Source: a candidate division FCPU426 bacterium (GTDB taxonomy: Bacteria > Oederibacteriota > Muellerivitia > Muellerivitales > Muellerivitaceae). Taken from it: a stretch of DNA of 64,000 nucleotides. This document shows, one piece after another, positions 20,439 to 62,183 of the stretch; the stretch's first letter is position 1; every line of letters begins with the position of its first letter. Both the position numbers and the translations under genes were made by a program. The notes below the pieces were generated by a model. It saw only the letters and a program-made list of their open reading frames with translations. It had not been told where the DNA came from and ran no database searches. The stretch lies in the NCBI GenBank assembly GCA_963771075.1, contig CAVYSE010000003.1, positions 128,001 to 192,000 of the forward strand. Direction: 5' to 3'.

Positions 20439-20748
20439 CGGGCTCCTTGTCCAGGGCGACGCCTATTGCGAGCCAACCAGGCGAGAAGTGAGGTTTGGCT
20501 TCTCCGAATTTTAAAACGGCTGGGGCAAGCCGAGGACTGGATCGATGGGTGCCGGGGCGGGCTAATTAAGAGCCCCGGCACTTGGGTCCTGGTTTCTTGC
20601 CAGTTTAAAAGAAAAACGAACAACAAAATGCCTGTCCACCATGATCCATTATTCATTTTGTCCACGACAGGTCCCCGCCATGTTGCATGTGCTTGCGTTT
20701 AGCTACATGGCCCGTTGTGGATAACCAATTCCAGGTTTAAGGCGCGAG

Positions 20749-21075
20749 CTATTTATTACGGCGGGCTAAAGCGGAAAACTGATAAAAATATTTTCGTAGG
20801 TCGGAAGTTACGGGTCCGGGTTCCATGATGCGGCAGGCTTCCCCCCTTAACCGCGCTATTTCCTTGAGGCGGTGCCTCCATCGTGGATCCGCAAGGGTCA
20901 GGTCCAAAAGCTCCAACATCCGGTCAAATGCTTTTTGCGCCTGTTCCGGATTGTTTTTATTTTTCCAGTTCAAGGCCCGTTCGTACTCACTACCCACGTT
21001 GCCCAACTGTTCCGGAAGGGTCAGGGTGAACCAACGGCCCGAGGATAAACCCGGATGCAAGGGTTCGGGGCTCAT
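20749..21075 (-). CDS. Helical hypothetical protein (type I recall next to DUF5674 genes)
   Basis: GRWFTLTLPEQLGNVGSEYERA motif; ATGA-coupled to the upstream remnant. Confidence 0.7.
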   Translation of the reverse strand: MSPEPLHPGLSSGRWFTLTLPEQLGNVGSEYERALNWKNKNNPEQAQKAFDRMLELLDLTLADPRWRHRLKEIARLRGEACRIMEPGPVTSDLRKYFYQFSALARRNK

Positions 21076-21199
21076 AGCACTAGTTTCCTTACGATTGACT
21101 CGATTTCCCGTCTGATACCATATCCCCAAAACACATTTTGGCGATTTCCCTCAAGCGTTGGAGCGTTATGGGGGCGGTGATCAGTTCAATATTGTCCAT
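21072..21199 (-). pseudogene. DUF5674-like gene remnant with the middle deleted
   Basis: N-terminus MDNIELITAPITLQRLREIAKMCFGDMV joined out of frame to a C-terminus IRREIESIVRKLVL*. Confidence 0.55.
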
Positions 21200-21331
21200 A
21201 AGTCCGGATTATAACATTCTTTCCCGAAAATCATGTTTAGACCCCCTATCCTTTCGTGATCCGAGATGGGTCCCCGCCATGCAGCATGCGCTTGCCCTTA
21301 GCTACATGGCCCGTCGCGGACCATTAACAGC

Positions 21332-21508
21332 CTAAGGTTTATAAACGAGCATCGCCTTGATATACATGGCGATGGCGCCCACAATCCAGCCCGCGAAAAA
21401 TATGGCGACGTCCCTGGTTTGTGCCGGATTACCCTTGAGCCAAAATCCGCCGAGAACGACGGCCATCACGATGACCACCGCGATCCCCCAACTGACGAAT
21501 GGATTCAT
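21332..21508 (-). CDS. 58-aa two-TM membrane protein (absent from the ORF track)
   Basis: GGAGG RBS; MNPFVSWGIAVVIVMAVVLGGFWLKGNPAQTRDVAIFFAGWIVGAIAMYIKAMLVYKP*; fills the interval between two dyad sites. Confidence 0.75.
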   Translation of the reverse strand: MNPFVSWGIAVVIVMAVVLGGFWLKGNPAQTRDVAIFFAGWIVGAIAMYIKAMLVYKP

Positions 21509-21586
21509 AACGCAACCTCCGATTTGGCCGTCCTCAATGGTTACTCCCCGCGGACAAGGTTTTAGGCATTTTTTGAAACTTCAAAT

Positions 21587-22291
21587 TTACATTTTTTCTT
21601 TTACGCCCTTCATTGCTTTTTCTGTCATCGGGGCGGTTTTTGACATGCCGTTGATAACTTCAAATGTTAGTAAAAGTGCCACACCCGGATTCATTACTTC
21701 ATGAATCTTCTCCAACAGATCAACCAAGCTGCGAACGGAAGCCCTTAACGCCTCTTTTTTATTTTTTAACGGACCCAAAATCGCATCCACCTTAGGGCGG
21801 GTTTCGTATCCGATTTTCAACGGAATCACGAAGGGATTATTATCCGGGGGCACAGATAATGGCACCTTGCCCCAATCCTCCGGTTTTCCAATCCCGGCGG
21901 CGTAATTTTCTAATACTTTCTTCATCGGGGGAAAGTCGCCTTGGGCGTAAACGCCTGGCGTTAATTGGTCTCGCAGCATTCCTACAACCGAATCCGAGGG
22001 AAACGAATCTAATTCCTTGCTCAGGGATTCGCCGTAAATAATCGAATTGACCTTATCGGAAAACACTCTCGCCCCGGGGACCAAGTCGTGATCACGAAGG
22101 GAGAAATCCCCCGCTAGGTCTATGCACCGTTCCGCGACAATGGTTGAGATTAGGGCTAGGGCATCTTCTGAACGAATTCGTTTATTTTTCTCGGACAAGG
22201 CTTCAATGACAAAGGCGGTAAGTCTGGCTTGGGCTATATCAGGTTTTGAGGAAAATCCCGTCATATCCATCAGTAAATCTTTAATTCCCAT
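21587..22291 (-). CDS. Hypothetical protein (module gene)
   Basis: 234-aa ORF with AGGAGG RBS, fills the interval between two dyad sites. Confidence 0.8.
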   Translation of the reverse strand: MGIKDLLMDMTGFSSKPDIAQARLTAFVIEALSEKNKRIRSEDALALISTIVAERCIDLAGDFSLRDHDLVPGARVFSDKVNSIIYGESLSKELDSFPSDSVVGMLRDQLTPGVYAQGDFPPMKKVLENYAAGIGKPEDWGKVPLSVPPDNNPFVIPLKIGYETRPKVDAILGPLKNKKEALRASVRSLVDLLEKIHEVMNPGVALLLTFEVINGMSKTAPMTEKAMKGVKEKM

Positions 22292-22339
22292 ACGACCTCC
22301 TATATTCCTTGACCACGACAGGTCCCCATAGGGGGACTA

Positions 22340-22774
22340 TTATCCGTTCCGATTGGCAGAGCGGGCATGCCGAACATAGCTTTCCACTTCCAATTGGGTA
22401 TGTGTAGCGATTTTGTCCATGTCCGCATCGGCATGAAGCAGGATCAGATGGTGTTTATGCGCTTTATAGGCGATCAAAGCATCAACTGTTTTTATCTTGT
22501 GCCCTTTTTGGCGATGTTCCCGCACCCACTCGGCCGCCTCCACCCACTCATGGGGAAATAAGGGGAAAGTGTGAAGCGCGGATAAATGAGCCGCCAACAG
22601 GGCCGAATGAGCCTGGGATTTCTCCGAGGAAACAAGCTCAAAGAAGATAGGGGATGTGATGGCCGCAAGATTGTTTTCCACCAATTTCTCCACCCTAGCC
22701 CGTATAACCTCCAACGGGTGAGAACCTAAGGCAAAAATCCACGCGGAACTATCGATCAGGTAAAGTTTATTCAA
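22340..22774 (-). CDS. vapC: PIN-domain toxin (VapC family)
   Basis: LIDSSAWI, conserved E, DALIA, LLHADAD PIN acidic residues. Confidence 0.88.
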   Translation of the reverse strand: MNKLYLIDSSAWIFALGSHPLEVIRARVEKLVENNLAAITSPIFFELVSSEKSQAHSALLAAHLSALHTFPLFPHEWVEAAEWVREHRQKGHKIKTVDALIAYKAHKHHLILLHADADMDKIATHTQLEVESYVRHARSANRNG

Positions 22775-22968
22775 CCCCTGGACTCTTTTAGGGATTTAGG
22801 CGTGAGATTAAGGCGGAACTTATCGAAATCCTTCACGAAACTCTTCCTTTGGATTTCCGACAATAAGTTGCGCAAGCCCGCCTCAAGGACTTCCCGTTGA
22901 GTAGCGATTCCCGTTTCCCGCTTGGCCTGTTTTAAAAGGCCTTCATCGATATGGGTTGTGATTTTCAT
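22771..22968 (-). CDS. vapB: VapB-type antitoxin
   Basis: MKITTHIDEGLLKQAKRETG..TQREVLEAGL (DUF2191/VapB-like); overlaps vapC; GGAGG RBS. Confidence 0.85.
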   Translation of the reverse strand: MKITTHIDEGLLKQAKRETGIATQREVLEAGLRNLLSEIQRKSFVKDFDKFRLNLTPKSLKESRG

Positions 22969-23064
22969 ATTAACCTCCGTGAGTATGGCATTGCTTGCCA
23001 TACTTATATCAAATTCAGGGGGTATAGACAATCGGGCAAAATTACAGACCAGGCCCAAATTCTT

Positions 23065-25041: not shown

Positions 25042-26278
25042 GATGTCCACGATGAGGACCCATCGTGGACAAGGTTTAAATTATAGCCGTTTCATATTTT
25101 TGAAATCCCTTGTAGGGGAAAGCGGGAGGCATTTGGGTTCCAGCTCATCGTGAATTCGTAAATGATTTTCATGGACTTGGTAATGGCGTGGTCCCCAGCC
25201 CCGGGGCCGTCCTTCCCAACTGCCTGAGCAATTTTCCATTCCCGGTTTGCTCGTCCTTGTTCACGCCCAGGCCCCAAAGGTAATCGCCCAGGGGGATTCC
25301 GCCGCAGGTCGAGGGCCTTTTCCAGACCATCGGGTAAAAGCGCAGTTTCACCTCCTCCGACCGCCACACCGGGCCAGATCTTGGTTCTCGGGAGGGATAG
25401 GGGGGCCAAAGCCTTTGGGGTTCTTCCCCCTCGGCCAGGGTTTTCTTGGGGCGACCGGGCTTGAGCCCGGTCCCAGTGCCCAAGTCGGCCAGATGAATGG
25501 CGGCACTCACGGAAATACCCCAAATTCCCTTATTTTGATTTGCGGAGTATCCGCCAATCAAATCCCTTGATTTCGAGATTCAAGAGAGGAAGGAGACCTA
25601 ATGCCTCTCGGATAGATCGCTGAAGCCCTTCCCCCTGCCGCAAAAGAACTGATTTACCAAAATCTTCAAAAAACCCTTAAAAACGATCCCCCGATTCGGG
25701 GGACGAAAAATAAGGGTTTTTTGATAACCGAGTACCATCTGCTGGCTTTGGCTGATCTGGTGGATCCGCTCCAGGTCGAAAAGCCCTTCACCTGGCTCAA
25801 AAGTGGGTTCAGGGTCCAAATCGGTTAAATGGGTTACAGAAGCCTCTGAAATCCCTTTATTTACCATCGTACAATTTGTACGAAGTACCTCCTCGGGAGC
25901 CTCGTTTAAGAGGGTAAGACGCCATAAGCTTTGCTAACTCTTGGTCTAGTCATCCGCAACCGCTTGGAAACCTGATCCAAATTTAAGGTCAACTCGTCCT
26001 TGATCCGGTTCTCGATGGCCTGGTAGGCGGCCCACCATCCCCTATCCCTGTTGATTTTGTCTCAAACTGATAAAAAGGCGTATATTGGATTTCTTGAAGG
26101 GACAGGGGATGAACTATAAAAGTAACAAGCAGTTGGCGGTTGGCAGGTAAGACCTAACACCAACATCCAACACGACCCATCAGCCCCCTGACTGAGGGCG
26201 ATAAAAACCATCGAGACGCCAATCCGCCAAGCCTTTCGATGCGATAAAGCTTACCTGGCGGGAAGGGCTTATATAAAA

Positions 26279-26554
26279 ATGGGCACCAAGGCTGACCGGA
26301 ACAAAATCATCACCCGTTATGTAGATGATTTCCTTAAAAACCAGGGCCTTATTCTTTTCGAAAAGTGGTATTCGGTCCTGCAAAATCTGAATTCCCCCCA
26401 AAAAGTCCATGACTTTGAAGTCCGCGACAAAATGCTCGAGGAAATCCTTGCCTTAGTGGCCCAGGATAATTCCCTGATTTTGAACAAGAAGGACAAGGGT
26501 ATGGTGGAGGAGCTTTTGAACAAGTTCCTTTTGGGATCAAACCTTTTGAAATAA
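26279..26554 (+). CDS. Hypothetical protein
   Basis: 91-aa ORF with protein-like composition only. Confidence 0.45.
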   Translation: MGTKADRNKIITRYVDDFLKNQGLILFEKWYSVLQNLNSPQKVHDFEVRDKMLEEILALVAQDNSLILNKKDKGMVEELLNKFLLGSNLLK

Positions 26555-26732
26555 AAGTCAACCAAGGATTGGGACCAAGCTTTTTCGGTTTTTTAGGGGG
26601 GGTAGGGTAATGCCACTACGGGTTGTGGACTAGTGTGTTAAGTGTTGGCAGGCCCCTCGGTTTTTGGTGGGGCAGGCTCCGCTGGAAATCCGCTTGTGGA
26701 TGGATTGATTCAACCAACGGGATGGGGATTAA

Positions 26733-27089
26733 TTAAATACGTTCACCTCTGAGGGGATCCAGGTTCCGAATGGTCCTCAGAACCTCGTTACTCGTTATTA
26801 TAAATCGCATCCCGCAATCATCCTCTTTGACCCAAACCACCTTGGCGTATAAATCGAAGGATTTTTCCATTTCCAAAGCTAAATCCACTATGAGAATGTC
26901 GCTTTCTTTAAGAGGAATGGGCGTTTTTAGCTTAAGACCACCCTCGCTGATATTTTGAGCGCGTCCGCGAAAAGGGGTTTTGGCGGTTTGATAGATATTG
27001 AGCGACGGCGAGGGTTGGACGAGATAGATCTGAATGGATTTTAAGTATTTGAACCGTTCATGAAGGCGTTCGTTTTTTGTTTTACTCAT
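26733..27089 (-). CDS. PilZ-domain protein
   Basis: ERLHERF (RxxxR) and NISEGG (D/NxSxxG), AKVVW, GMRF. Confidence 0.8.
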   Translation of the reverse strand: MSKTKNERLHERFKYLKSIQIYLVQPSPSLNIYQTAKTPFRGRAQNISEGGLKLKTPIPLKESDILIVDLALEMEKSFDLYAKVVWVKEDDCGMRFIITSNEVLRTIRNLDPLRGERI

Positions 27090-27534
27090 TCCCGGGTTAC
27101 CTGGCACAGTTTTTTCAAGCGAAAGTGTTGAAAATAGGTTGGCGCTTATTGACCGCAATGGTAGAGGAGGTGTCCAGAGGGTCAGCCCCCTTGATCGACG
27201 GAGGCTTCACTTCCCTGTCCAGATAACCGGGTTCTTTATAGGTTATTTAGTTTTTTGGCGCAATAAACTTTTTTAATGGCTTGGAAGTTCATACAAGAAT
27301 TATGTAAAGGAAATACATATTTGTAGGAGAGCGTAAGACCTTAGGTTGGTTTAGCCTATTTTGTTTTGCGGTTATTCATCCTAACAATGTATTCGGCCTC
27401 GATAGCCCAATGGATTTAAACAGTTCTCGTGCAGCCTGATCGCTTCTGCTTTCTCCCCAAGGGGCCTGCTTCCACTTCTGGGCCCGGCCCTGAGCAGAGC
27501 AAAACTCTTTCGAAGGGCCCCTAACCGTCCTTAG

Positions 27535-27663
27535 CTTAGAGGCTCAACGCCAACCCGCCGAAGTTCCCGAAGTAACCCGCCGACAGGTTCCAATCGGGCC
27601 CGAAAATGAGCTGGAACCCCGCTCCCACACCGTAAAGCATGTGGGCGGGTGGGGTAATGCCAC
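27535..27663 (-). repeat. Direct repeat copy A: tail of a beta-barrel/autotransporter-like gene
   Basis: Aligns with 33616-33774 apart from substitutions and a 30-bp deletion. Confidence 0.85.
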
Positions 27664-27696
27664 AGCCAACCCCATGAGATTTTTCAAGCCCCCCCT

Positions 27697-28155
27697 TTAA
27701 AACCCTTTGGGAACAATCTTCTTCATCCAAAATGATTCGACATATTTCATGGCCATCATGAAGGGTTCCGGGTCCGGCGGCTTCACGAAATACAAGTCGG
27801 CCTTGAAGTCATGGGCCTCGATCACATCCTGCTCCCAAGTGGAGGTGGTCATGACTACGACGGGAATATCCGCGAATTCCGGGTTTTCCTTTATTTCACC
27901 CAGGATAATCCTGCCGTCCTTGCGGGGCAGGTTCAAATCCAGAAATACCAGGTCGGGCCGCTGGACGCGGGTGTGGCGACCCTTTTGGCTGAAATAATCG
28001 GAGGCATCCTGGCCATCCCGGATGAGGACAGCGTGATTCGTGACTTCCGAGCCCTTCAGGAACTCCAGCAATAAATAAGCGTCCCCCACATTGTCTTCCA
28101 CCACCAGAATTTCAATCGGCCGTGCCGCGCCCGAAATTTCCGTCTGAACGCTCAT
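27697..28155 (-). CDS. Single-domain response regulator (Rcp1-like)
   Basis: ILVVEDNVGD, FLDLNLPRKDG, VMTTS, VKP. Confidence 0.9.
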   Translation of the reverse strand: MSVQTEISGAARPIEILVVEDNVGDAYLLLEFLKGSEVTNHAVLIRDGQDASDYFSQKGRHTRVQRPDLVFLDLNLPRKDGRIILGEIKENPEFADIPVVVMTTSTWEQDVIEAHDFKADLYFVKPPDPEPFMMAMKYVESFWMKKIVPKGF

Positions 28156-28613
28156 GGCTTTCCCCCCGAATGACCCCAAAGCTTCTCGAGCCAAAAATCC
28201 TCTATGTATTTCATGATTCCCAGGTAGTCCCCCATGTCCATGGGCTTAACGATAAAGAAGTTGGCGTTGTTGGCGTAAGACTGCTCCAGGTCTTTCGGGT
28301 CTTTGGAGGAAGTCATGATCAGGACGGGGATTTCGCAAAGTTCCCGGTCGCTCTTGATCGCCCCCAGCAATTCCCGGCCGCCCATTTTGGGCAGGTTCAA
28401 ATCCAGCAGGATCAGGTCCGGCTCACCCGCGTTGGGGTAAGGTTCCTGGCGGCGGAGGTAATGGAGGGCGTCCAGCCCGTTGCGCGCCACGTTCAGCCGG
28501 ATGGGGAACCGGGAGTATTTGATCATCTCCTTCATCAAGACGACGTCCCCCAGGTTATCCTCCACCAGCAGGATCTGGACTTCCTTGGGCTTCACTTCCA
28601 CTTGATAGGCCAT
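28152..28613 (-). CDS. Single-domain response regulator (Rcp1-like)
   Basis: ILLVEDNLGD, LLDLNLPKMGG, IMTSS, IVKP; start at MAYQVEV. Confidence 0.9.
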   Translation of the reverse strand: MAYQVEVKPKEVQILLVEDNLGDVVLMKEMIKYSRFPIRLNVARNGLDALHYLRRQEPYPNAGEPDLILLDLNLPKMGGRELLGAIKSDRELCEIPVLIMTSSKDPKDLEQSYANNANFFIVKPMDMGDYLGIMKYIEDFWLEKLWGHSGGKP

Positions 28614-29724
28614 GCTCCCCTCCTTTGGTTTTCCGAGGGATCGTAAAGCAAAAAATCGACCCCTTGCCCGGTTCCGACTCGACCCAAATCCTTCCCTTGT
28701 GCTGCTCCACGATCCGCTTGCATAGCGCCAGCCCGATGCCGGTGCCCGGGTATTGGTCCCGGTGGTGCAGGCGCTGGAACACCTCAAAAATCTTGTCGAA
28801 ATATTGCGGTTCGATTCCGATGCCATTGTCTTTCACCCGGATCACCCATTGGTCCGGTTCCTCCCAGGCGAACAAATGGACCCGGGGCTTTTTGGCGCCA
28901 TGGAACCGGATTGCGTTTTCAAGCAGGTTTTGCAAAAGAAGCCCCATTTGGGCGGAATCCGCCTCCACCTCGGGGAGGAAACCGTGGGTGACCTCCGCCC
29001 CTTTCTCCTCCACGAGCAGCTTCAGGTTTTCCATCGTCTCGTGGAACACCCGGATCAGGGGGACGGGCCGCCGGACCAGGGACTGGGCCCCTAGGTGGGT
29101 ATATGAAAGAAGGTCGTCGATGAGCTGCTGGAGGCGGTGGGCCGCGTCCAGGGTGATGCGCAGGTACTCCTCGATGCGGTGGTCCATATGGTCGATCAGG
29201 TGGGTTTTCAGGAGCTGGACGAAACAGCTGATCATCCGGAGGGGTTCCTTCAAGTCGTGGGACACCGCGTAAACGAACTGCTGGAGTTCCGAATTGGACC
29301 GGGCCAGTTCCAGGGCCTTTTCCTCCACTGCCTGGGTCCTTTCCCGGACTTTTTGCTCCAAAGACTCGTTCATTTCCCGGAGGCGCCCGTTGGCGGCCCT
29401 CAAATCCTCCGCCCGTTCCCGGAGGACCGACAGGGTGTCCTGGTAGCCTCGGTGGAGGGTATGGAAGGGGGAAAGGGCTTCCCGGAGGAAATCCCCGGCG
29501 GCTCCGAGGGCCCAGGCCCCAGGGTCCCATCCCTCCAGGGCGGAAAAAATCCCCCTCAGGGCCTCATGGTGGGCGTCCGCCAGTTCCAGGGGGCCCAGCC
29601 CCTCCGCCAGGGCCTTCCGGCCCAGCTCATAGCCCCGCCTCAGGGCCCCCTCGTTCCGGGTTTGCAGGTAGCCCATCAGCGCCTGGGAATAGTCGTCCTG
29701 GAGTTTCACTTGGAGCGGGCTCAT
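28555..29724 (-). CDS. Histidine kinase with RsbU N-terminal-like input domain
   Basis: N-terminus YSQALMGYL...GYELGRKALAEGLGPLEL..HHEAL; SHDLKEPLR H-box; YPGTGIGLA G2 box. Confidence 0.9.
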   Translation of the reverse strand: MSPLQVKLQDDYSQALMGYLQTRNEGALRRGYELGRKALAEGLGPLELADAHHEALRGIFSALEGWDPGAWALGAAGDFLREALSPFHTLHRGYQDTLSVLRERAEDLRAANGRLREMNESLEQKVRERTQAVEEKALELARSNSELQQFVYAVSHDLKEPLRMISCFVQLLKTHLIDHMDHRIEEYLRITLDAAHRLQQLIDDLLSYTHLGAQSLVRRPVPLIRVFHETMENLKLLVEEKGAEVTHGFLPEVEADSAQMGLLLQNLLENAIRFHGAKKPRVHLFAWEEPDQWVIRVKDNGIGIEPQYFDKIFEVFQRLHHRDQYPGTGIGLALCKRIVEQHKGRIWVESEPGKGSIFCFTIPRKTKGGEHGLSSGSEAQGSPDPAGGG

Positions 29725-30353
29725 GGCTTCCCTCCCAGGTAACGGACGGCCAACACCAGCGCGTCGTCCGTGTCTTTCTTGTTTTGGGCCAGGATGCGCT
29801 CGGCGATTCGCGGGGGCGGCTCGTGCAGGCTCTGGATGAGGGCCTGGGAAAAATTACTGCGCAGCCCGTCCGTGGCGAGGATGAGCGTGTCGCCCGGCAT
29901 GACGGGGATCACCGTGGCCCGCAGTTCGGGCAGGTTGAACCCCACCCCCCCGGATCGCAACAGCAGGTACTCGGCGGCGGGGCTGGCGTTGGCGCCGGCC
30001 CGGTAGAGAAGGCCCTCGACGTTCCCCACCCCGGCCCAGGTCATGGTACCGTCCGTTTTATTGAAGGAAGCCAGGCTCATCACGACCCCCCGGGTTTTCT
30101 GGGCGGCCTCGTGGCAGTGCCGGAAAAGGGAGATCGGCGATTCCTGGGCGAAATCCGAGAGGGTGGCCGCCACCGTGCGGCCCGCCACGGCCGCGTCCGT
30201 CCCGTGGCCCAGGCCGTCCACGACCGCCGCCAACGCGCCCTGGGGAAAGCACTTCACCACGTAGGTATCCCCGGACTCGCTCTCTCCGGCCATCGTTTGG
30301 GAAGCCACCCCCCACTCGATGCAATCGCAGCGCCCGGAATTTCCCACGTTCAC
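29721..30353 (-). CDS. rsbX: RsbX-like SpoIIE/PP2C phosphatase
   Basis: GESESGD, VDGLGHG, GVGNV, LATDGL, DDALV; GTG start overlapping the rsbT stop. Confidence 0.85.
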   Translation of the reverse strand: MNVGNSGRCDCIEWGVASQTMAGESESGDTYVVKCFPQGALAAVVDGLGHGTDAAVAGRTVAATLSDFAQESPISLFRHCHEAAQKTRGVVMSLASFNKTDGTMTWAGVGNVEGLLYRAGANASPAAEYLLLRSGGVGFNLPELRATVIPVMPGDTLILATDGLRSNFSQALIQSLHEPPPRIAERILAQNKKDTDDALVLAVRYLGGKP

Positions 30354-30754: not shown

Positions 30755-30755
30755 G

Positions 30756-31121: not shown

Positions 31122-31127
31122 GGCGGG

Positions 31128-36571: not shown

Positions 36572-36641
36572 CCATGGGTTCTAGGCGTTCGACCGGATTA
36601 TACTAAGTCCCTGAATCCATCCCAATCAAAGGGCTTTCCCG

Positions 36642-37322
36642 GTGATCTCCGAAGTTGAATTAAGAAACGAACTCAACGCAATGATTGATTCCTTCCTGGA
36701 AGATTGTCCCTTTTTCTTGTCGTGGAAGAAGGGTTCCATCGACCGGACTTTGTCCGGGAAATTTCTCGCCACCTTCGACACCTTGGTAAAAAGTTTCCCG
36801 GAGTTGATCGCGGCAGGGGCGTCGCGCATGACGGACGAAGAGGCTCGGACAGTCCTGGCGGTGAACTTGTACCAGGAATGCGGTGAGGGGAATGTCCAAC
36901 GGACCCATTACGCCATCTACCGGAAATTCCTCTCCACCACCGGGTTGGACCTTTCCTCCGTCACCGAAAATGGATTCGCGGAGGAATGGAGAACCAAGAT
37001 GAAGGGTTATATCCAGGACACCGGGTGTGTCGGGGCCGTACTGGGCGCCCTGGCCGCCGGGGAATACCTGGCACAACCCGCCTTGACCCGGATCTATTCG
37101 GTGCTGAAACCCCTCTTTCCCGGGGCGGACCCCGAATATTTCGAGAAACACCTGGTGTTGGAGGAAGACCATGTCAGGGAAATCACCGGGATGATGGTGA
37201 AAGAGGCTGAAAAAAACGACGGACTGGAAGCGGTGCTATCCGGCTTTAAGTTCGGATTATCGGTTTGGGGGGAATACTTTGGCCACCTGGCCGAGTTTGT
37301 GACCTCGGCAAAAAAGGGTTGA
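36642..37322 (+). CDS. Heme-oxygenase-like diiron redox enzyme (PqqC/CADD/HDO superfamily)
   Basis: NLYQECG..THY, GE, YFEKHLVLEEDH ligand pattern. Confidence 0.78.
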   Translation: MISEVELRNELNAMIDSFLEDCPFFLSWKKGSIDRTLSGKFLATFDTLVKSFPELIAAGASRMTDEEARTVLAVNLYQECGEGNVQRTHYAIYRKFLSTTGLDLSSVTENGFAEEWRTKMKGYIQDTGCVGAVLGALAAGEYLAQPALTRIYSVLKPLFPGADPEYFEKHLVLEEDHVREITGMMVKEAEKNDGLEAVLSGFKFGLSVWGEYFGHLAEFVTSAKKG

Positions 37323-37324
37323 AG

Positions 37325-38110
37325 TCAATTAAACACCGGCAGGGGGCTGAGCCGGCGGCATCCCAACTTCACGATCTCGGTGACATGAAGCTGCATCATA
37401 TAGTTGAGGTACCTTTCCTGGGCGCCGGCAAGTTTGAGCCTCCGCTCGTAAGTGGCGCAATCCAATAAAATCAAATCCTTTCCATTCGCGATATGGGGGG
37501 GTTCATCCTTTTCGATGTCGTCAATCGCGTTCATCAGTTCGGGATCGAATAATCGCTTGAAAATACTGGTTTCCAGGTCGGTCATGGAGGAGAGCACTAT
37601 TTCCCCGGCAAATTGGTTGGCGGCGGCGATTTCCGAAGCCGTTTCGGCCTCCGTTTGGACCCTTTGCATTTGGACGAGTATTTCGGGCAGCACAAAATCG
37701 CCGATATTGGGCTCCGCGCCATAACGGCGAAGTTGCCGGGCGAAAACGTCATAATGACGCACCTCATCCCTGATTTGCCGGGCGAGCCTTAATTTCAACT
37801 CGACCTGGTCCTCGGGCAAAAGCGTGATTTCCCTTGCCTGGGCAACAGTGCCAAAATACCACTCCGACCAGGCCCGACGCCTTAGATAGGCGACGAGGGC
37901 GGTTTTATAAACTTCCTCATCCAAGGTCATGAATTCGTACTTCCTTGAATCATACAGGTCGTCCCCCACGTTCTTGGCGCGATGATAAAGGGCTTGCATG
38001 AACTCGTTGGGAGTTAACTTCATCAGTTCTTCCGAGCCCCACTTGGAATAGGATGGAACCATAAGAGGCTTATCCCCATCGGATGGATGGGCTTGATCCG
38101 GGTTTTGCAT
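37325..38110 (-). CDS. Ferritin-like diiron-carboxylate protein
   Basis: Two ExxH motifs (QIRDEVRH, EKDEPPH) with upstream E residues. Confidence 0.75.
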   Translation of the reverse strand: MQNPDQAHPSDGDKPLMVPSYSKWGSEELMKLTPNEFMQALYHRAKNVGDDLYDSRKYEFMTLDEEVYKTALVAYLRRRAWSEWYFGTVAQAREITLLPEDQVELKLRLARQIRDEVRHYDVFARQLRRYGAEPNIGDFVLPEILVQMQRVQTEAETASEIAAANQFAGEIVLSSMTDLETSIFKRLFDPELMNAIDDIEKDEPPHIANGKDLILLDCATYERRLKLAGAQERYLNYMMQLHVTEIVKLGCRRLSPLPVFN

Positions 38111-38328
38111 GGCTTTTTTCTCCCCTCAAACAAACAGGCAAACCTTCTGGGATTGATCCCACACCAATCTTTATAAGCCCAACGCACCCGCAAAGTGAAT
38201 AGGGTCCAACCCGGACCTTTTTATTTAATGACTGAAAATAACCAGGTGCCTGGCCACCGTTATCCACGATTCATCTTGTCCATGTTGGGTCCCCGCAGTG
38301 GCCAGCAGCCTTAATGAGGGTGGCAATG

Positions 38329-38601
38329 TTATTTTTTTCCGGCAACAGCCAACAAGGCCTCGTTGATGACGGTTTGGTATCCGATGCCTCTCTGTTTGCC
38401 AATTCTCTTGGCCCATTCTAAGGTTTTCGGATTGAGGCGGATTGAAACCGGCAAATAAAGCTCATGAGGCTCTTTAGTCGGTCGGCCACGCGGACGGCGC
38501 GGCTTGCCCGAGTGATGTTCGATCGCTTGCCGGTTCTTCTCCACTTCTCCGGGAGTTATCCTTCTTGCCTTGTGAAACGGAAATTCATTTGAGTTCTTCA
38601 T
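38329..38601 (-). CDS. brnA: BrnA-family antitoxin
   Basis: RGRP, VSIRL, GIGYQTVINEAL. Confidence 0.9.
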   Translation of the reverse strand: MKNSNEFPFHKARRITPGEVEKNRQAIEHHSGKPRRPRGRPTKEPHELYLPVSIRLNPKTLEWAKRIGKQRGIGYQTVINEALLAVAGKK

Positions 38602-38866
38602 AACGGTTCCTTTCCCGACGGCTTGCCGGCCTTGCGCTGATGATTCGACAGACCTGGCCTTGTAAGCGCTTGGTGAAAACGACCACTAAAATCTTTCCAC
38701 CGTCAGCTTCTCCAATCAACCATTCCCTGGATTCCAGGGTCGAGTGTTTAGGGTCAGCGGCTACCAGGGCAAAAGGATCATCAAATTCCGTAATAGCTGT
38801 TTTGAATGAAACGCCGTGTTTCTTTTGGTTGGCTTCGTCCTTGGCGAGGTTCCAATCAAATCGCAT
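38585..38866 (-). CDS. brnT: BrnT-family toxin
   Basis: MRFDWNLAKDEANQKKHGVSF, RIISARPA. Confidence 0.93.
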   Translation of the reverse strand: MRFDWNLAKDEANQKKHGVSFKTAITEFDDPFALVAADPKHSTLESREWLIGEADGGKILVVVFTKRLQGQVCRIISARPASRRERNRYEELK

Positions 38867-39002: not shown

Positions 39003-39440
39003 CTACCTTTTTAATTCCTCAAGTGGAAGAAGTCGCGAGTCTTCCAAGGCGGCCGTTCGGTGTCCAAGACCTTTCAAATAACCTTCGTTGGACGCAAAAG
39101 AAAGAAATGAATCCACGCTCTGCTGGCGGATAAGCGCAACCATATCCCACCGCTCGGTTTCTGGCCCAATTAGAAATTTACCACCTTTGCCGAGGAACAA
39201 TATATCTCCCCCGGTCTCACGCAAGAATGGCAAGGTATGGTCGATATAGCGTCGAAAGGCATCCGCGCCGCTGATGGGTGTTGGCGGACGAAGATCCGGT
39301 GTCGCTGAATAGTCGGCGGTTTCACGGAATCGCAGTAAGTTCAACATCACGATTTCCCCGAGGATCCTCCGCATGACGAAATCCCGTCCGGCTTCCTGCG
39401 TCACATCAAGATAAGGTTTCGTTCCATTTTTATTTGTCAT
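39003..39440 (-). CDS. DUF1330-family protein
   Basis: VMLNLLRFR, FLIGP..ERWD, HRTAALEDSRL. Confidence 0.85.
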   Translation of the reverse strand: MTNKNGTKPYLDVTQEAGRDFVMRRILGEIVMLNLLRFRETADYSATPDLRPPTPISGADAFRRYIDHTLPFLRETGGDILFLGKGGKFLIGPETERWDMVALIRQQSVDSFLSFASNEGYLKGLGHRTAALEDSRLLPLEELKR

Positions 39441-39573: not shown

Positions 39574-40104
39574 TTAGCGGTTCGGGAATTTTCCTTGGAT
39601 GGTTTTGATCGCCAGAAACAGCGTTTGGGGTTTGTTTGCCAACGGATGGAAACCGTATTTTTGATAAAACCGGACAGCTTGATCATCCTTGGCGTCCACT
39701 ACAACTCCGTAAATTCCAATTTCGTTTGATAAACGTTCAGCTCTCTGTAAAGCGTCTATCAAGAGCGCAATGCCAATTCCACGGCCTTGGTGCCTTTTAT
39801 CCACCGCCAATCTTCCGACCCTAATGGCAGGAGCGGGATAACGGGGGAGGCCTTTTGAATGGGGGGGCGGCAGCATTTGGGAGTCGATTTCTGAAGACAC
39901 GGCCGTGTAAAAACCCAAAACCTTCCCGCTCTCGCTTTTCATCTGCGCAACAAATGTTTTGCCGATGTTTCGTTCATGGTTTTGCCGGGCATATTTTCGC
40001 AAATATTCATTTAGCTCTAATACCCCGCAATCAAAGGAATCAAAATCCAAATGGCAGGTTATGGCTTGAATCTCGAATGCTAAAGGATTCCCTGCGGGGT
40101 TCAA
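39574..40104 (-). CDS. GNAT acetyltransferase toxin (AtaT/TacT-like)
   Basis: FDCG..LNEYL, GRLAVD..QGRGIG, VDAKD..A..FY..YGF. Confidence 0.9.
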   Translation of the reverse strand: MNPAGNPLAFEIQAITCHLDFDSFDCGVLELNEYLRKYARQNHERNIGKTFVAQMKSESGKVLGFYTAVSSEIDSQMLPPPHSKGLPRYPAPAIRVGRLAVDKRHQGRGIGIALLIDALQRAERLSNEIGIYGVVVDAKDDQAVRFYQKYGFHPLANKPQTLFLAIKTIQGKFPNR

Positions 40105-40376
40105 GGGCGGCTATATTTCTTGATCGCCGCTGACAAAGCCTTATTGGGACGGGGCGGATTTTCCAGTACTTTCATGAAAGAATTCCACTCATTTTCGGAA
40201 AGAGTGATGCGGCTTTGGGTCGTAAGCCCCTCCTGGGCGGCCCTTAAGGAATTTGAAAGCATGAACGCACTGAGGCTAAGGCCAAAAATCGAGGCGGCCT
40301 TTTCAAGCATGGCCTTGTCTTTCGGGCGGATGCGAATTTCAATTCGTTGTTCCCTGGATTGTGTCGCCGTTGGCAT
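40101..40376 (-). CDS. DUF1778 antitoxin (AtaR/TacA-like)
   Basis: RIEIR, LEKAA, LSAFM, ITLS..EW..F..LENPP.PN.AL. Confidence 0.92.
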   Translation of the reverse strand: MPTATQSREQRIEIRIRPKDKAMLEKAASIFGLSLSAFMLSNSLRAAQEGLTTQSRITLSENEWNSFMKVLENPPRPNKALSAAIKKYSRP

Positions 40377-40464: not shown

Positions 40465-41462
40465 AGTTCTGTTCTTTTCTTCATCTTCGGCGTGAACTTC
40501 ACTACCCATTTCCCCCGGCGGTTTATCTCCATCCGGAAGTCAAACCCCAGAAACCCAAAGCTTTCGCCTTTCGTTAAGTCCACTGTCCTCGTTTTGTCCG
40601 TGTTGATTTTCAGGTCAAGTTTAACCAATTCCTCAAGTAGCCTCTGGTAGACCGCCTTCACAAGCCCTTCCCCCTGTGGGTTTCCATCCACGAGGATCAC
40701 CATATCGTCGGCAAACCTCGCATATTCGACAGGGGTGTACATCCCTTGCCGGGTCGCTTCCTTCGCCTTTTCCAGCATCTTGTCCACCTCGTTGAGGTAG
40801 AGATTCGCCAGAAGTGGGGAAACAACTCCGCCTTGGGGAACTCCTCTTTTGCCGCTGGCTTTCAGGATTAGCTTCAGCAATCTCATCACCGTTTTATCCT
40901 CAATCCTCTGCGCTACCTTCTTCAACAGCAGGTCATGCCTTACCGTATCGAAGTACGCCTTCAGATCAAGGTCGATGACTCGGGTTTTCCCCCCGACAAT
41001 TGCTTCGGCTACCCTGTTCACCGCCGCATGAGCAGTCCGCTTGGGCCGGTACCCATAAGACCCGTCTTGAAAATCAGCTTCGAAAATTGGTTCCAGGATG
41101 AGCTTCATCGCTCCCTGGACAACCCTGTCCCGAATGTTGGGTATCCCAAGAGTTCTGACCTTCCCATCTCCCTTGGGTATCTCCTTCTTCCGGTTCCGGG
41201 CCGGTCTATACGTGCCTTGGACTAGTTCACGCTGGATGCTTTCAAGAAACGGCTCTATCCCTGCTTCTTCAATGGCCTCAAATGTCACCCCGTCTATTCC
41301 AGGGGCTCCATTGTTTGACTTCGCCATCTGGTAAGCCTGTTGGAGCGCTTCCATCTTGCAAACATGCGTGTAAAGTCCCCAGAAACGCCAGTTCTTCTCA
41401 GCCTTCGCTTTGACGTATATCTCTCGTCTCAGGTCTTGCAGACTGATGGACGTCTTTTTCAT
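40465..41462 (-). pseudogene. ltrA: Truncated group II intron RT/maturase (RT0-7 present, thumb/X domain lost)
   Basis: SLQDLRREIYVKAKAE, RTLGIP, GVPQGGVVSPLLAN, RFADD, FGFLGFDF; homology stops at KKRTE and the frame reads through into flanking DNA to 40386. Confidence 0.9.
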
Positions 41463-41973
41463 ACCGTCCCTGCCTCCCACTTTTGCCAAGAGATTTCACA
41501 ACAGCAGGGTTACTTCGCTCCACGGGAATTACCCCGCTTCTTAGCTACTTTTAACCCGTCCTACTCCCTCTTGCCTTCGACCGCTTTCCCGCATCGGGTT
41601 ATACGGCCTACCTTTTTCCAAGTATTTCTACCTGGGGCAAGGAGGGTCTCTCCAGTTGCTTGGTATGTCCTTGTCATCATGCCGTGGCTAGCACCCCGCC
41701 AGTGTGTTCCAGCGCATTGGCCATCTGGCCGCTGTTCCATGTTGCCTTCATCCCACGACGGAGGATTCGGCCACTGGGGCTATTGTTTTCGGGGCCACCT
41801 ATGCCTTCACTTTCGTTACGGCCTGACGACTCGCTCACCATCCCGAAGATGGCTTTGTCGATGGGCTTCAGGCATTAAGTTTCCCGCTTGCCTGCCATCC
41901 TAGCTAATGGGTTTTGGCTATTACCCATGCAAGTCTACCTCTTGCTGAACACACCTGCCTTTTCTGGACGCAT
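40465..41973 (-). mobile_element. Group II intron, family B, 3'-truncated, inserted in the spacer of a dyad site
   Basis: 5' end (A)TGCGTCCAGAAAGG with domain I-like motifs and an RT ORF; no domain V/VI; flanked by the two halves of one 26-bp site. Confidence 0.88.
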
Positions 41974-41990
41974 CCCCGTCGTGGACAAGC

Positions 41991-42534
41991 TTAACCAGAA
42001 CTCGATGAATATTTTTTAAGAATCGTTAATTCTTCAGGTGTAAAAAAATCAGGCCATTTCTTTTTAAATGGCAAAACAAACCCCTTATAGAACCATTTAC
42101 GATCAATTCGGGTTTTTAGCGCATCGGGCAATTCATGTATGGCATCCATATAATCTGTAACTAGACTTAGATTTGTGTTTTTGATTAAAGAAGAAGTCCT
42201 GCTAAATACATGGATGAGTGTGTCATGGTCTAATTTCGTTATGCTTCGAGGCCATGGGTAGTAATAAAGAATTTCCGTTAGTTCTTCCTGGTCTAAAGTT
42301 TGGATTTTTAAAACCCGGCAAAGTATTTTTTCCCCATGTCTCTTGTCCTGCTACACGAGATACTCGGTTATTTCCGTCGGCGAAACCATCATTCGCTTTA
42401 ATCTCTTCCAAAGCTCTCACAATCGCATTTAAATATTTAGTCTCTTCTGGCTTCGCCCTGGCCTGAACAGCCAATCGGTGCAATAGATCCAGAAAACAAA
42501 CAGAAATCATTTTTTGTTCAACTGGAGCACTCAT
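41991..42534 (-). CDS. Low-GC hypothetical module gene, probably one ORF broken by two indels
   Basis: AGGAG RBS; 103-aa ORF, then open overlapping frames continuing to a TAA at 41991, 4 nt from the dyad site. Confidence 0.5.
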
Positions 42535-42613
42535 TAAATAATTCTCCTAAAAGAACCTCTTTATCGTTTTTCCTTGTCCAATCCGGGTCCCCGTCGTGGA
42601 CAAGCTTAACCGC

Positions 42614-42966
42614 TTATTCACGTACCCTCACCCGTCCTTTTTCAATAATCCACAACCGTTTATCTACCTGTTCTTTGGACAACAGATCCAATACGGGGCG
42701 GAAAAGTTCGACCATGGTTGGTTTGTCCTGGCGGTCAGACCGGATCACCATGATTCCAGGATATTTTTCCGGCGGGTAAGCCCGGATATCCGAAAAATCA
42801 AGGTCAGAGGTAATGAAGGCGCGGTTTTCGGCCAAGCAAACGACGGCTAAATTCGTATCAGGATGGCCGGTTAATTCTTGGTCTTTTACCGTAAGGGCGT
42901 CATGACCAGCTTGGATTAAAAGATGTTTGATCTCGAAAGGCAGGTTTTCATCGATTTTGAACTTCA

Positions 42967-42967
<1 letters not shown>
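42614..42967 (-). CDS. DUF5615 PIN-like toxin
   Basis: MKFKIDENLP, GHDA, FITSDLDFSD. Confidence 0.9.
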
Positions 42968-43287
<320 letters not shown>

Positions 43288-43335
43288 TTAAACAACCCCT
43301 AAAGGCTAAAACCGGCTCTAATAGCACTATTACCT

Positions 43336-45312
43336 GCAGAGTAGAGCGCTGGCGCGTATGCCTTAGAGTACGGTGGCGAATCCAACCCTTTCGGATTGGG
43401 CCTCAGTCCGGCTCTCATCACCACGTTTCCAGCGCCCCCTCATCAAACCGTACGTGACCTTTTCGATCATACGGCTTTCCGACAACCTTTCAACCGGCAG
43501 CATTCAAGGCAAAAGCTGGAATCCAGTTCAAACCAAGGCGTTTCACTTCCTCGATCGACCATGTTCGTCCTTCCCAGGCGTACTTATGCCTCCGAAACAA
43601 AGTCAGCCTTTCGAGTACGTAAAATTGAAGCTTGGAAAAGTATGGCTGGCTGTCCCCAATTCGGAAATAGTTGGCCCACCCCCTTAACACCGGGTTCAAA
43701 GCCTTCGCTACATCCTCCATTGGAGATAAGAGCCGCTCTCGGCCCGCCGTCATCTGCTTCACTTTCTCGGCGATTTTCTTCATGGCCTTCCGGCTCGGCC
43801 AGCTCAGGCAACAGGTCTTACCCAATCCTACCACCGGCATACCTACTCGAAAGTGGAACCCAAGGAAGTCAAACCCTTCCTTCCCAGGCCCCATTTCCAC
43901 CAGCCGTGTCTTTTCGGGGTGCAGTTCAAGCCCTAGTCGTCCCATCAATTCCTTGATGACTTCCAGGCTCTTTTCCGCATGGGCTTGGCTTCCGCACAAC
44001 ACCACAAAATCGTCGGCGTAGCGCACCAGCCTACCCAGTTTCCTGTGCCTCTTATTCCAAACCTTGTCCAGCAAGTGAAGGTAAACATTGGATAACAGCG
44101 GTGAGATCACCCCGCCTTGCGGTGTCCCTCGGAGAGTCGGCGTAAGCCTTCCTTCCTCAAACACACCCGCCTTCAGCCACCCTCGGATCAGTTTCAAAAC
44201 CTTCCGGTCACTGATCCTCTGGCGCACCAGCACCATCAGTTTGTCGTGGTCGATGGAATCGAAATACTTCCGAATATCTCCATCCACCACCCATCTGTAC
44301 CCGCCATTGATCCACTTCTTGATCTCCCGGTGGGCCTGCTGGGCTCCGCGTTTTGGCCGAAATCCAAACGAGCCTTCCAGAAAGTCCGCCTCAAAGATGG
44401 GTTCCACCACCTTCCGGCAAGCCGCTTGAACTACCCGATCCCGAATTACCGGGATTCCCAACGGTCTCTTGCTTCCATCAGGCTTGGGTATTTCCACTCG
44501 TCTCACAGGTTTAGGCAGATACTTCCCAGCTTTGAGTTCTTCCTGGATGCCCTTCAGGAATGGAATAATTCCCACCTTCTCTTCGATCCATTCCAGCGTT
44601 TCCCCGTCCACTCCTCCTTGGCCTTTATTAGCCTTCACCTGTTTCCATGCCGCTGTCAGGACATCCCATCGGGTCATCCTGTCATGCAGTACATGAAATC
44701 TCCGGCTTGGGCTCCTCTTGGCCGCTCGGTATAGCGCCCTTTGAAGGGTTCGCGCCTTGTCTTCGGAGTTGTTGGCCCTTTGGGGCATGCTCCAGCGCCT
44801 CCCTTTTGAAGGTTGCTTGGTTGAAGCAGGGGTCCTTCCCTCCAGGTGGTTTTGTTGTCCACCCTTCACAGGTATTGTGACCCCCTCCGACTTCCTCCCG
44901 CCCTTGCCCCTTTTCGGTTTTAGCCTTATAGCGGCAAGTCTTTTGGCGGGTAGGATCTCCCAGGTTGCTTGCAAAGCCTTTCCAGCATTCCGTTCCCCAT
45001 ACGCCGGAGGACTTTCCCCGCTTGCTCCAGATTCTTCAGCGGGATCGTGGCCTTCGCCGGTAGACACGCGGCTCGGCATCCTCTTGCACCTTTCGGTGTC
45101 CCATTCACGACGCGGCAGGATTCACTTGATGTTGCGGACTGCTAGATTGTTCCCTCACTGAATGAGGTTTATGACCCCGTTTCGGGCAGAACCTCTCGGT
45201 CCTACGCCGGGGGCTGACTTCCAGGCTCTCTGGCGATTACCTGGTCAGGATTTGGGCTGGCCCTCTTCGGCCTACTCCCTCACCTGCTGGCTCTACAAAC
45301 CTTCGCTGGCAC
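43336..45312 (-). mobile_element. Group II intron, family A, copy 2
   Basis: Matches 23065-25041; only one substitution seen (45015 T vs 24744 G). Confidence 0.93.
43490..44788 (-). CDS. ltrA: Group II intron reverse transcriptase/maturase
   Basis: Identical protein to 23219-24517. Confidence 0.95.
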   Translation of the reverse strand: MPQRANNSEDKARTLQRALYRAAKRSPSRRFHVLHDRMTRWDVLTAAWKQVKANKGQGGVDGETLEWIEEKVGIIPFLKGIQEELKAGKYLPKPVRRVEIPKPDGSKRPLGIPVIRDRVVQAACRKVVEPIFEADFLEGSFGFRPKRGAQQAHREIKKWINGGYRWVVDGDIRKYFDSIDHDKLMVLVRQRISDRKVLKLIRGWLKAGVFEEGRLTPTLRGTPQGGVISPLLSNVYLHLLDKVWNKRHRKLGRLVRYADDFVVLCGSQAHAEKSLEVIKELMGRLGLELHPEKTRLVEMGPGKEGFDFLGFHFRVGMPVVGLGKTCCLSWPSRKAMKKIAEKVKQMTAGRERLLSPMEDVAKALNPVLRGWANYFRIGDSQPYFSKLQFYVLERLTLFRRHKYAWEGRTWSIEEVKRLGLNWIPAFALNAAG

Positions 45313-45386
45313 GATGTCCACGAAGGGTCCCCGTTGTGGACGGCAAATTCACTTCAAAATAGTAATAGTGGCCTGACACCTTTTTC

Positions 45387-45842
45387 TTAGTCTAAAATCT
45401 TTCGCATTTGCCTGCAATCTTCCGCAATCCCGGTAAGCTCATCCGCATCCCAGTCATAAAATTCCCAGCCCAATTTTTTGTAGAATCCCAAAGCCTCAGG
45501 CGCGGCATTCACATATAAAGTCTTAATCCCAAAGTCGCGCGCATACTTTTCCACCAAAGAAGATAATTGGCGTCCGTGACCACTCCTTTGGTAATCATCT
45601 GATATGGCAACCAGTCGTACCGCGCCATAGCCATCTCTAAAATCATCTAAGCGGGTAGTACCAACAGGGATGTTATTGAGCAACAATAGAAGCGGGTGAT
45701 GATTCGGCAGATATTCATCCTCATGCATTTCATCGTAGTCTTGTTTTCCACGATTTTCCCACAGCACTTTATGGCGAATGTCGTGATATGCCTGCCAATG
45801 GTTCAAAGCGGTAACTTTTATGAGTTCATAGTTTTTTTGCAT
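45387..45842 (-). CDS. GNAT N-acetyltransferase
   Basis: VRLVAI..YQRSGHG, NAAPEALGFYKKLGW. Confidence 0.88.
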   Translation of the reverse strand: MQKNYELIKVTALNHWQAYHDIRHKVLWENRGKQDYDEMHEDEYLPNHHPLLLLLNNIPVGTTRLDDFRDGYGAVRLVAISDDYQRSGHGRQLSSLVEKYARDFGIKTLYVNAAPEALGFYKKLGWEFYDWDADELTGIAEDCRQMRKILD

Positions 45843-45953
45843 TTTCGAACCTAACAAACCGTAATTCAAAAGTATTTTTAAAAAAGGGACAGACCAACAT
45901 TAACCATTTTTCCCTGTCCAATGCGGCTCCCCATCGTGGACAGGTCCATCCTG

Positions 45954-46376
45954 TTATTGCCCACTCTTGACTACTTTGGTGATCTTAACAGAGTCGATGC
46001 AGACAAATTGCATGACCCCTTTTTGATAGGGCGTACAGGGGCATACCGTGAAGATTCCATAAACCTCAGCGCCCAAATCATCCCTGAAAATCGCATCTAA
46101 ATTTTCTGGAGTGGGAGCTTCACCACGCACACCCAATACCCTCTGGGTTCCAATCATCCAAATCTTCATTGATGTAAGATTGGCGCCAAAACGTGCCCGT
46201 CCCCTAAAAGAAAAGCATTTTCCAACAACCCTGGGGTCGCTATGACAGGGGCCTTTGAATTCCATGTAGGAGTCTACTGTCGGGGTGGCAGTGGCACTAT
46301 CAGCACTGACGGGGTGTTTCAACCCCACGCACAAAAGAAGAAGAGTTATAGAAATAATATTTATTTTTTTCATCAC
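45954..46376 (-). CDS. Secreted Cys-containing hypothetical protein
   Basis: Signal peptide; GKCFSFRGR, YGIFTVCP, QFVCID; fills a site-to-site interval. Confidence 0.75.
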   Translation of the reverse strand: MMKKINIISITLLLLCVGLKHPVSADSATATPTVDSYMEFKGPCHSDPRVVGKCFSFRGRARFGANLTSMKIWMIGTQRVLGVRGEAPTPENLDAIFRDDLGAEVYGIFTVCPCTPYQKGVMQFVCIDSVKITKVVKSGQ

Positions 46377-46430
46377 GTCTCACTTCTCCAATTTTGTCTG
46401 TCCACGATGGGTCCCCATCGTGGACAAGGA

Positions 46431-46787
46431 TTAAGCCCTGCGAACCCGAACCTTTTGATTTGTGGCTACGACATTGCAACCAGCCCAAGTGGAGACATCT
46501 TCACTTTCAAAAATCTCCACAATGCGTTTAAACAGGTCTTCGCGGCTAGGATCAATAAGTCGGATGAGTAGAACGCCATGGTGGGTTCCCGGGGAATGGC
46601 TTCGTATGTCGGAGAAATACAAATCCTGTGATACTAGAAAGCGCTTGGCTTCCTGGGCGGCCTTCCAAACGCTTGGATCGTCCTTGCCCTTCAGGCTCTC
46701 TTGGAGGACGGTATCCACGTCATGGCCGAGCCGGGTAAGGGGTTCACTTAAATCGGCGGGAAGGTTCTCATCCAGCTTTATTTTCAT
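46431..46787 (-). CDS. DUF5615 PIN-like toxin (second, divergent copy)
   Basis: MKIKLDENLP, GHDVDTV, LVSQD..FSD, HHGV. Confidence 0.9.
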   Translation of the reverse strand: MKIKLDENLPADLSEPLTRLGHDVDTVLQESLKGKDDPSVWKAAQEAKRFLVSQDLYFSDIRSHSPGTHHGVLLIRLIDPSREDLFKRIVEIFESEDVSTWAGCNVVATNQKVRVRRA

Positions 46788-46796
46788 GTGGTGGAA

Positions 46797-47033
46797 TTAG
46801 ACGGTTGGGACGGCGGGAACGGGCAGGTCTTCCTCAGCAGAAGATGCGGCATAAGAAATGACGGAGGTTACCGCCTCACGTGTTAACGAGGGAAAAGATT
46901 TAAGCACTTGATCCATGCTGTCACCGGCGGCAAGGCTGGCTAAAACAGTCCTAAGAGTTACCCTCGTGCCTTTAATGACGGGTTGGCCGTTACAGATTTT
47001 TGGGTCTCTAACGATAAAGTCCGTGTGATTCAT
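46797..47033 (-). CDS. DUF433 antitoxin (second, divergent copy)
   Basis: DPKICNGQPVIKGTRV, FPSL. Confidence 0.92.
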   Translation of the reverse strand: MNHTDFIVRDPKICNGQPVIKGTRVTLRTVLASLAAGDSMDQVLKSFPSLTREAVTSVISYAASSAEEDLPVPAVPTV

Positions 47034-47230
47034 AACCCCTCCTCATCAACTGAAGTTATTTTAGGCATGATGCCATGGGGGAACAAGTGGCTGTGTAGTA
47101 AGTGGCCCTTATGCAATATAACCAGCCCAAAAGGAGGTATATTTACAATCAATTTAGGTGTCCACGATGGGTCCCCATCGTGGACTAGCTTCAACGTCAG
47201 GTGTCGGAAATAACTTTCATGGGATCGGGT

Positions 47231-62181: not shown

Positions 62182-62183
62182 AG

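Follow-up and report, generated by a model that had tools for sequence, protein, structure and literature searches.

Cassettes between copies of a 28-base palindrome form an integron-like array in a candidate division FCPU426 bacterium and are likely reshuffled by a short serine recombinase

Cassette arrays are taken as a hallmark of integrons, whose attC sites carry the R''/R' core motif RYYYAAC...GTTRRRY. Among other described systems, pdif sites alternate in orientation, with neighbouring sites in inverted order, and Ccr proteins are full length, with SCC units of tens of kb at one locus. The pdif sites are named D/C and C/D (PMC12907356), and half of the integrase-less attC clusters are reported to sit in genomes without IntI (PMC4889954). 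In the structure of the LI integrase, a large serine recombinase, the contact area of the recombinase domain is described as 13 bp and the zinc ribbon as reading positions 16-24 (PMC3783163); removal of the coiled coil is reported to make excision promiscuous for all four pairs of sites (PMC3783163, PMC5499577). Here we describe a window of 64,000 nucleotides (the whole stretch analysed, positions 128,001 to 192,000 of contig CAVYSE010000003.1, assembly GCA_963771075.1) from a candidate division FCPU426 bacterium, an uncultured soil bacterium, that carries an array of gene cassettes between copies of a 28-base palindrome. That this cassette array platform is real is close to certain. Sequence comparisons indicate that its cassettes are reshuffled at the centre of the palindrome, likely by a short serine recombinase encoded on another contig.

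The conserved unit is TGTCCACGAYGGG-TC-CCCRTCGTGGACA, and conservation ends about one base beyond it on either side. Both an 11-6-11 and a 13-2-13 division of it are possible, and in the latter it fits the layout of a serine-recombinase site. The 26-mer of an original prediction, made from the window's letters alone, has eight matches in the window at three or fewer mismatches (none in 100 shuffles). The 14 copies claimed there are reached only if long, decayed and diverged forms are counted, namely two long forms (20659, 21258), two decayed copies (21529, 22310) and two diverged ones (38277, 41960), where the decayed copies and long forms were added by weight matrix and motif scan. All 14 sites lie within 20659-47186 and no copy was found in the rest of the window, as had been stated; the asymmetric centre is indeed the same way round in nearly all of them, the site at 25044 being the only one with its centre reversed. 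The site folds as a 12-bp hairpin, and the observation that these hairpins lack a poly-U tail stands, with no T-tract after any of them. The original prediction was also right that the site is not attC: a RYYYAAC...GTTRRRY pair at 50-150 bases, on either strand, spans none of the 14. Viewed on the gene strand, the arm behind the stop codon is conserved and the one ahead of the next start is variable, with mean mismatches of 0.61 and 1.49, respectively.

Several variants of the site were observed. The long form consists of the left arm, TC, a 37-base hairpin insert and the right arm, and has 13 copies in the genome, those of the window being at 20659-20723 and 21258-21322. In the relative L117 both arms of the insert are altered together, and in the relative L152 its loop is inverted. 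The reversed site at 25044-25071 borders a 13-kb block, and since its flanks resemble those of a forward site, its loop may have flipped locally. Three relatives' loci (L044:13269, L044:13911 and L070:1620) carry other hairpins with the same TGTCC...GGACA ends and different interiors.

A scan of the genome for the site, proposed as a check in the original prediction, finds 111 sites (98 short and 13 long) and none in the reversed genome, leaving about 100 copies beyond the window. Of these sites, 101 fall into 18 clusters and 10 are solitary. Neighbouring sites are co-oriented in 79 of 83 pairs, the largest open reading frame (ORF) is opposite in strand to the site in 69 of 78 modules, and modules have a median length of 792 bases. 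Among 100 module ORFs of the other clusters (101 before one duplicate was dropped), 27 match toxin-antitoxin-type families and 43 have no Pfam match, both by hand count. The site is present in 21 of 24 genomes of the family and in the one sister-family genome, and in none of 15 other genomes of the phylum. Exact matches in a genome collection come from 10 assemblies, one of them titled Candidatus Firestonebacteria; the family's Xer is present in four of the five tested, and the fifth, probably a binning error, has one site near a contig end whose two flanks also occur in another assembly. Viral contigs yielded no exact match.

The modules recur in other combinations. Six of the 12 window modules are found elsewhere between two sites and with other neighbours: the VapBC module in L073 and L155 (site offsets -1 and +5, with the intron absent), the BrnTA module on contig C21 of the same genome and in L158, and one module each in L124, L162, L155 and L152. 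Three of the others recur with one or no site detected and three have no match. A 782-base contig from sequencing run X1 agrees with 46447-47185 in all but one difference and diverges at the last base of the site; its continuing sequence is absent from this genome and from the collected loci of relatives. Among 394 unique sites, the 19 families that share a right flank have 52 variable columns in the left arm, none in the centre and 11 in the right arm, and the 12 families that share a left flank have 4, none and 12, respectively. Each arm thus travels with its own flank, which places the exchange at the site centre. For one cassette end (L081 and C28:108352), the partners differ at positions 12 and 13, and site position 18 follows the right flank, therefore the exchange lies between 13 and 18. 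Across the 394 sites, position 12 varies in 24 and position 13 in 54, with 14-17 conserved. These data bear out the predicted reshuffling of modules with breakpoints in the sites. They also agree, together with a best match to the integron integrase model TIGR02249 of 41.8 bits against a cut-off of 265, with the more general proposal that the cassette platform is not based on attC and has its recombinase gene elsewhere. Loose ends at 45915/45945 in runs X2, X5 and X6 were rejected as rearrangements, being accounted for by the site at 39500 within the window itself, and the loose ends of run X3 by other sites of the same genome. In an empty-site comparison, homologues of the genes flanking the window array were found in other contexts.

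The sole Resolvase-domain gene of the genome (G000 contig C8:80002-80835) encodes a 277-amino acid (aa) protein with Resolvase and Recombinase domains (PF00239, PF07508), and with neither a zinc ribbon (PF13408) nor a coiled coil. A site begins 14 bases 3' of its stop codon. The genome has three more 3' fragments of the recombinase; every one of them runs up to a site, and the cassettes that follow differ. The short forms make up a separate family (19 clusters, 275-283 aa, 68-96% identity, next relatives at no more than 61%), with the VRVSS motif invariant in 20 of 20 sequences, and the 10 short-form sequences placed in a tree form one clade among full-length relatives (100/99, bootstrap not settled). 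A site follows each of the 13 distinct 3' ends visible for this clade, whole in 10 cases and partial in three (a contig end, an intron split and a frameshifted copy). Of some 67 longer relatives whose stop is visible (hand count), none has a whole site there and one has a lone arm-like 13-mer; most of these come from other lineages, and the fair control is therefore the longer relatives from site-bearing genomes, where the count is 0 of 10. Many full-length relatives run, by our own reading of the sequences, into a tRNA-like end. The best Foldseek matches of the predicted fold are serine integrase-att complexes (E 2.5e-11), the AlphaFold model being weak (mean pLDDT 67, pTM 0.44) and used for the fold match only. 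Domain and profile searches of this genome gave no other recombinase candidate for the site. We regard the short serine recombinase as the probable enzyme of the array. Its gene lies among ArdC, RadC and NYN genes, and so probably travels on an island. A metagenome scan covering 13 of 64 parts found two short-clade loci among the 80 kept.

In the mechanism that we propose, a dimer of the enzyme would bind the two 13-base arms through its recombinase domains and cut around the central TC. DNA between two co-oriented sites would be excised as a circle with one site and could be inserted at any other site, with the asymmetric TC holding all cassettes in one direction. The window array lacks its own recombinase gene and would depend on the enzyme in trans, as integrase-less attC clusters do. 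As the zinc ribbon of LI integrase reads outside the 13-bp contact, an enzyme free of the ribbon is predicted to read 13+2+13, which is the size found, and since the reaction would lack attP/attB directionality in the absence of ribbon and coiled coil, every site would be a potential target.

A number of points weigh against this proposal. The breakpoint interval 13-18 includes TC (14-15) but not TC alone, and one drifted pair with a common right flank is discordant at position 17. Arm complementarity, examined over 203 cassettes for signs of a circular intermediate, is 10.61 (p 0.046) for a cassette's own arms and 10.59 (p 0.118) for the arms in place. No circle or excision joint at a site was found in the low-depth sequencing-run contigs. 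A phage integrase without its zinc ribbon is reported to bind about 25-fold more weakly, and one without its coiled coil is described as giving no efficient intermolecular integration (PMC3783163); a natural short enzyme would therefore have to compensate for these losses. Finally, an intact short recombinase gene is present in only 5 of 31 family genomes, and five genomes with 17-43 strand matches and 86-99% completeness (G001, G003, G014, G018, G041) have neither gene nor relic. Relics occur in five more family genomes, as fragments in two and by DNA search in G002, G008 and G043; in G002 and G008 a decayed recombinase 3' end abuts a site, and in G043 a left arm. With a threshold set afterwards, seven of eight genomes with at least 40 strand matches have the gene or a relic, and the five genomes without a strand match have neither. 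Given the precedent of attC clusters in genomes without IntI, a patchy gene is not fatal to the proposal, yet it leaves room for another enzyme.

Such an enzyme could be a tyrosine recombinase. The original prediction read the site as 11-6-11 and dif-like, in which case an Xer-like protein would move the cassettes, as in the dif modules of Acinetobacter. The range of Xer invites this reading, as 23 of 24 family genomes and the one sister-family genome have a close orthologue, much the same as the range of the site itself, and dif sites are likewise described as 28 bp with two 11-bp arms (PMC12907356). However, this stand-alone, divergent Xer has a dif-like dyad of its own with inner ATAA/TTAT arms, right beside the gene in 20 of 25 loci, and this dyad agrees with the array site at only 2 of 11 arm bases; the xer gene has no array site nearby, and it is the short serine recombinase, not Xer, that abuts the site. 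Positions 12 and 13, which would belong to the overlap, are variable and differ between the partners in L081 and at C28:108352. The dif-like reading is thus not supported, and we consider Xer an improbable driver of the array. One such dyad is at L001:10167-10196 (G000 contig C6), just before the xer gene, and we take the pairing of Xer with an adjacent dif-like dyad to resemble the XerS/XerH modules. This Xer is found in the family and its sister family, and other families of the phylum have only distant matches of about 30%. The tyrosine recombinases of the genome (eight matches) are a trio, four phage-like proteins and this Xer, and none is beside an array.

It could also be that the short recombinase uses the site only as the att of its own island, with ArdC, RadC, NYN and toxin-antitoxin genes, while a different enzyme builds the arrays. 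The company and patchiness of the gene would suit this, as would the 7-kb unit between two sites that carries the recombinase in L284, and introns show that the array site can be parasitised by others. We nevertheless think it unlikely, as an enzyme that uses the site as att can in principle recombine its other copies, one and the same cassette end follows the recombinase-adjacent arm in one place and an ordinary arm in another, and this genome offers no other candidate. Less credible still is that the palindrome is a REP-like repeat or a terminator, with modules shuffled by HUH transposases or homologous recombination. The hairpin, the solitary copies and 20 Y1-transposase matches in the genome could be cited for it. 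The scatter expected of such repeats, which the original prediction had named as speaking against a cassette array, is not what is seen: the copies form co-oriented clusters around accessory genes and lack a T-tract, the breakpoint is central and not at the hairpin foot, which by itself largely refutes this reading, and Y1 genes with visible flanks have short inverted ends of their own and no site. On G000 contigs C1-C28 there are 17 weaker PF01797 matches, belonging to multi-copy Y1 transposases of about 317 aa whose short inverted ends are unusual for HUH elements.

The features of the window array are listed below, with ORFs called from the sequence and families assigned by Pfam.

20659..20723, plus strand: long-form site (motif scan)
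20749..21129, minus strand: cassette ORF without Pfam match
21258..21322, plus strand: long-form site (motif scan)
21529..21556, plus strand: decayed site (weight matrix and motif scan)
21587..22291, minus strand: cassette ORF of 234 aa without Pfam match, start 18 bases from the next site
22310..22337, plus strand: decayed site
22340..22971, minus strand: VapB/VapC (PIN) cassette, found between two sites and intron-free in L073 and L155
23064..25040, minus strand: group II intron with a 529-aa reverse transcriptase (RT), at the site foot, ends approximate
25044..25071, minus strand: site with reversed centre
25072..38276, both strands: site-free 13-kb block with PilZ, response regulators, a histidine kinase, ABC transporter pieces and a heme-oxygenase-like gene, not cassette-like
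38277..38304, plus strand: site with five mismatches
38329..38866, minus strand: BrnT/BrnA cassette, recurring between two sites on contig C21 and in L158
38946..38973, plus strand: site
39003..39440, minus strand: cassette ORF of 145 aa without Pfam match, homologue between two sites in L124
39500..39527, plus strand: site
39574..40376, minus strand: cassette of TacA antitoxin and GNAT, homologue between two sites in L162
40451..40464, plus strand: left half of a split site (13-base arm and T)
40465..41972, minus strand: second group II intron, 3'-truncated, in the centre of the split site
41973..41987, plus strand: right half of the split site (TC and 13-base arm)
41991..42534, minus strand: module of two small ORFs (52 and 103 aa), the longer one without Pfam match
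42575..42602, plus strand: site
42614..43200, minus strand: DUF433/DUF5615 cassette
43335..45311, minus strand: second copy of the group II intron with the 529-aa RT, ends approximate
45315..45342, plus strand: site
45387..45842, minus strand: GNAT cassette
45915..45942, plus strand: site
45954..46376, minus strand: cassette ORF of 140 aa without Pfam match, homologue between two sites in L155
46399..46426, plus strand: perfect site, TGTCCACGATGGG-TC-CCCATCGTGGACA
46431..47033, minus strand: DUF433/DUF5615 cassette, between two sites in L152 and with a different right neighbour in run X1
47159..47186, plus strand: last site of the array

The distance from stop codon to site is 2-46 bases across the 11 measured modules, in agreement with the 2-47 originally given; a 206-base module was left out of the distance measurements. 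The accompanying claim, that several modules have about 20 bases between site and start codon, applies to only two of the seven modules measured, in which the distance is 18-125 bases. The description of the cargo as typical of cassettes was likewise correct in part: Pfam identifies toxin-antitoxin pairs and GNATs (VapBC, BrnTA, TacA with GNAT, two DUF433/DUF5615 pairs and one GNAT), whereas DUF1330 is not confirmed, the ORF at 39006-39440 being without a Pfam match.

Three group II introns lie at or inside sites of the window. The two with the 529-aa RT are near-identical (99%) and belong to about 10 copies in the genome, always at the site foot, in either direction and with an atypical 5' end. 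The truncated intron is arranged within 40451-41987 as left arm and T, intron, then TC and right arm, three to four bases from the insertion point of intact copies in relatives, and it could mark the repair of a break at the central dinucleotide.

The 13-kb block contains repeats at 26596-26663, 27515-27663 and 33596-33822 (69 bases at 84% and 110 bases at 94%), located upstream of response-regulator genes and with one short match elsewhere in the genome, and an ABC transporter gene in several frameshifted pieces (34260-36057). Outside the array, a comM-like Mg-chelatase gene is split across two ORFs (16613-18300), and the end of the window (56013-64000) carries an IS30-like transposase, cas1, a DUF1016/YhcG gene and a type I-E-like cas7 (CT1975).

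The titles and abstract openings of the open-access papers searched gave no description of such a system. On balance, the array would appear to represent a second, independently evolved capture system of the integron type, in which a large serine recombinase lost its directionality domains and was domesticated to move cassettes between about 100 equivalent 28-bp sites across the chromosome. If so, the cassette design evolved more than once, here from different parts, and its enzyme would be compact and Cre-like, a serine recombinase whose natural site is short. The candidate is also a natural test of the model in which zinc ribbon and coiled coil set the length and direction of the site, and a serine-recombinase version would offer another setting, besides integrons, for the question of how cassettes arise. 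Current finding tools seek attC and IntI, therefore arrays of this kind, which also carry many genes without Pfam match, are invisible to them.

Compared with integrons and CALINs as these are described in PMC4889954, the array shares co-oriented cassettes of one or two genes, stops near a palindromic site, many toxin-antitoxin and unknown genes, group II introns at sites, and clusters that are far from a recombinase or in genomes without one. Unlike attC, its site is one fixed sequence of 28 bases, with no AAC/GTT triplets, no variable terminal structure and a central breakpoint, and in place of IntI the candidate enzyme is a serine recombinase encoded at the cassettes' 3' end, convergent with them, the arrays being spread over 18 clusters. 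With the large serine recombinases (LI/A118, phiC31, Bxb1, SPbeta) the candidate has in common the catalytic and recombinase domains reported for these enzymes (PMC3783163, PMC5499577), an att site right behind the gene, and 50-60% identity to full-length relatives that target tRNA genes. It ends at about 277 aa, however, before any zinc ribbon or coiled coil, and the near-symmetric 28-bp site in about 100 copies contrasts with their attP/attB pair of 40-50 bp. The dif/pdif modules of Acinetobacter, which use XerC/XerD, are similarly described as accessory modules bounded by 28-bp sites with the recombinase acting in trans (PMC12907356). The arms of the array site are unrelated to Xer arms, its copies are predominantly direct repeats, and the dif-like site of the host is another sequence. 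As in SCC, a serine recombinase would stack cassettes at repeated att sites; the match of the candidate to the Ccr NCBIfam model is weak and below cut-off, and the array differs in its short modules at many loci. The array works like an integron cassette array, yet in these comparisons it matches neither integrons, nor dif modules, nor full large serine recombinases.

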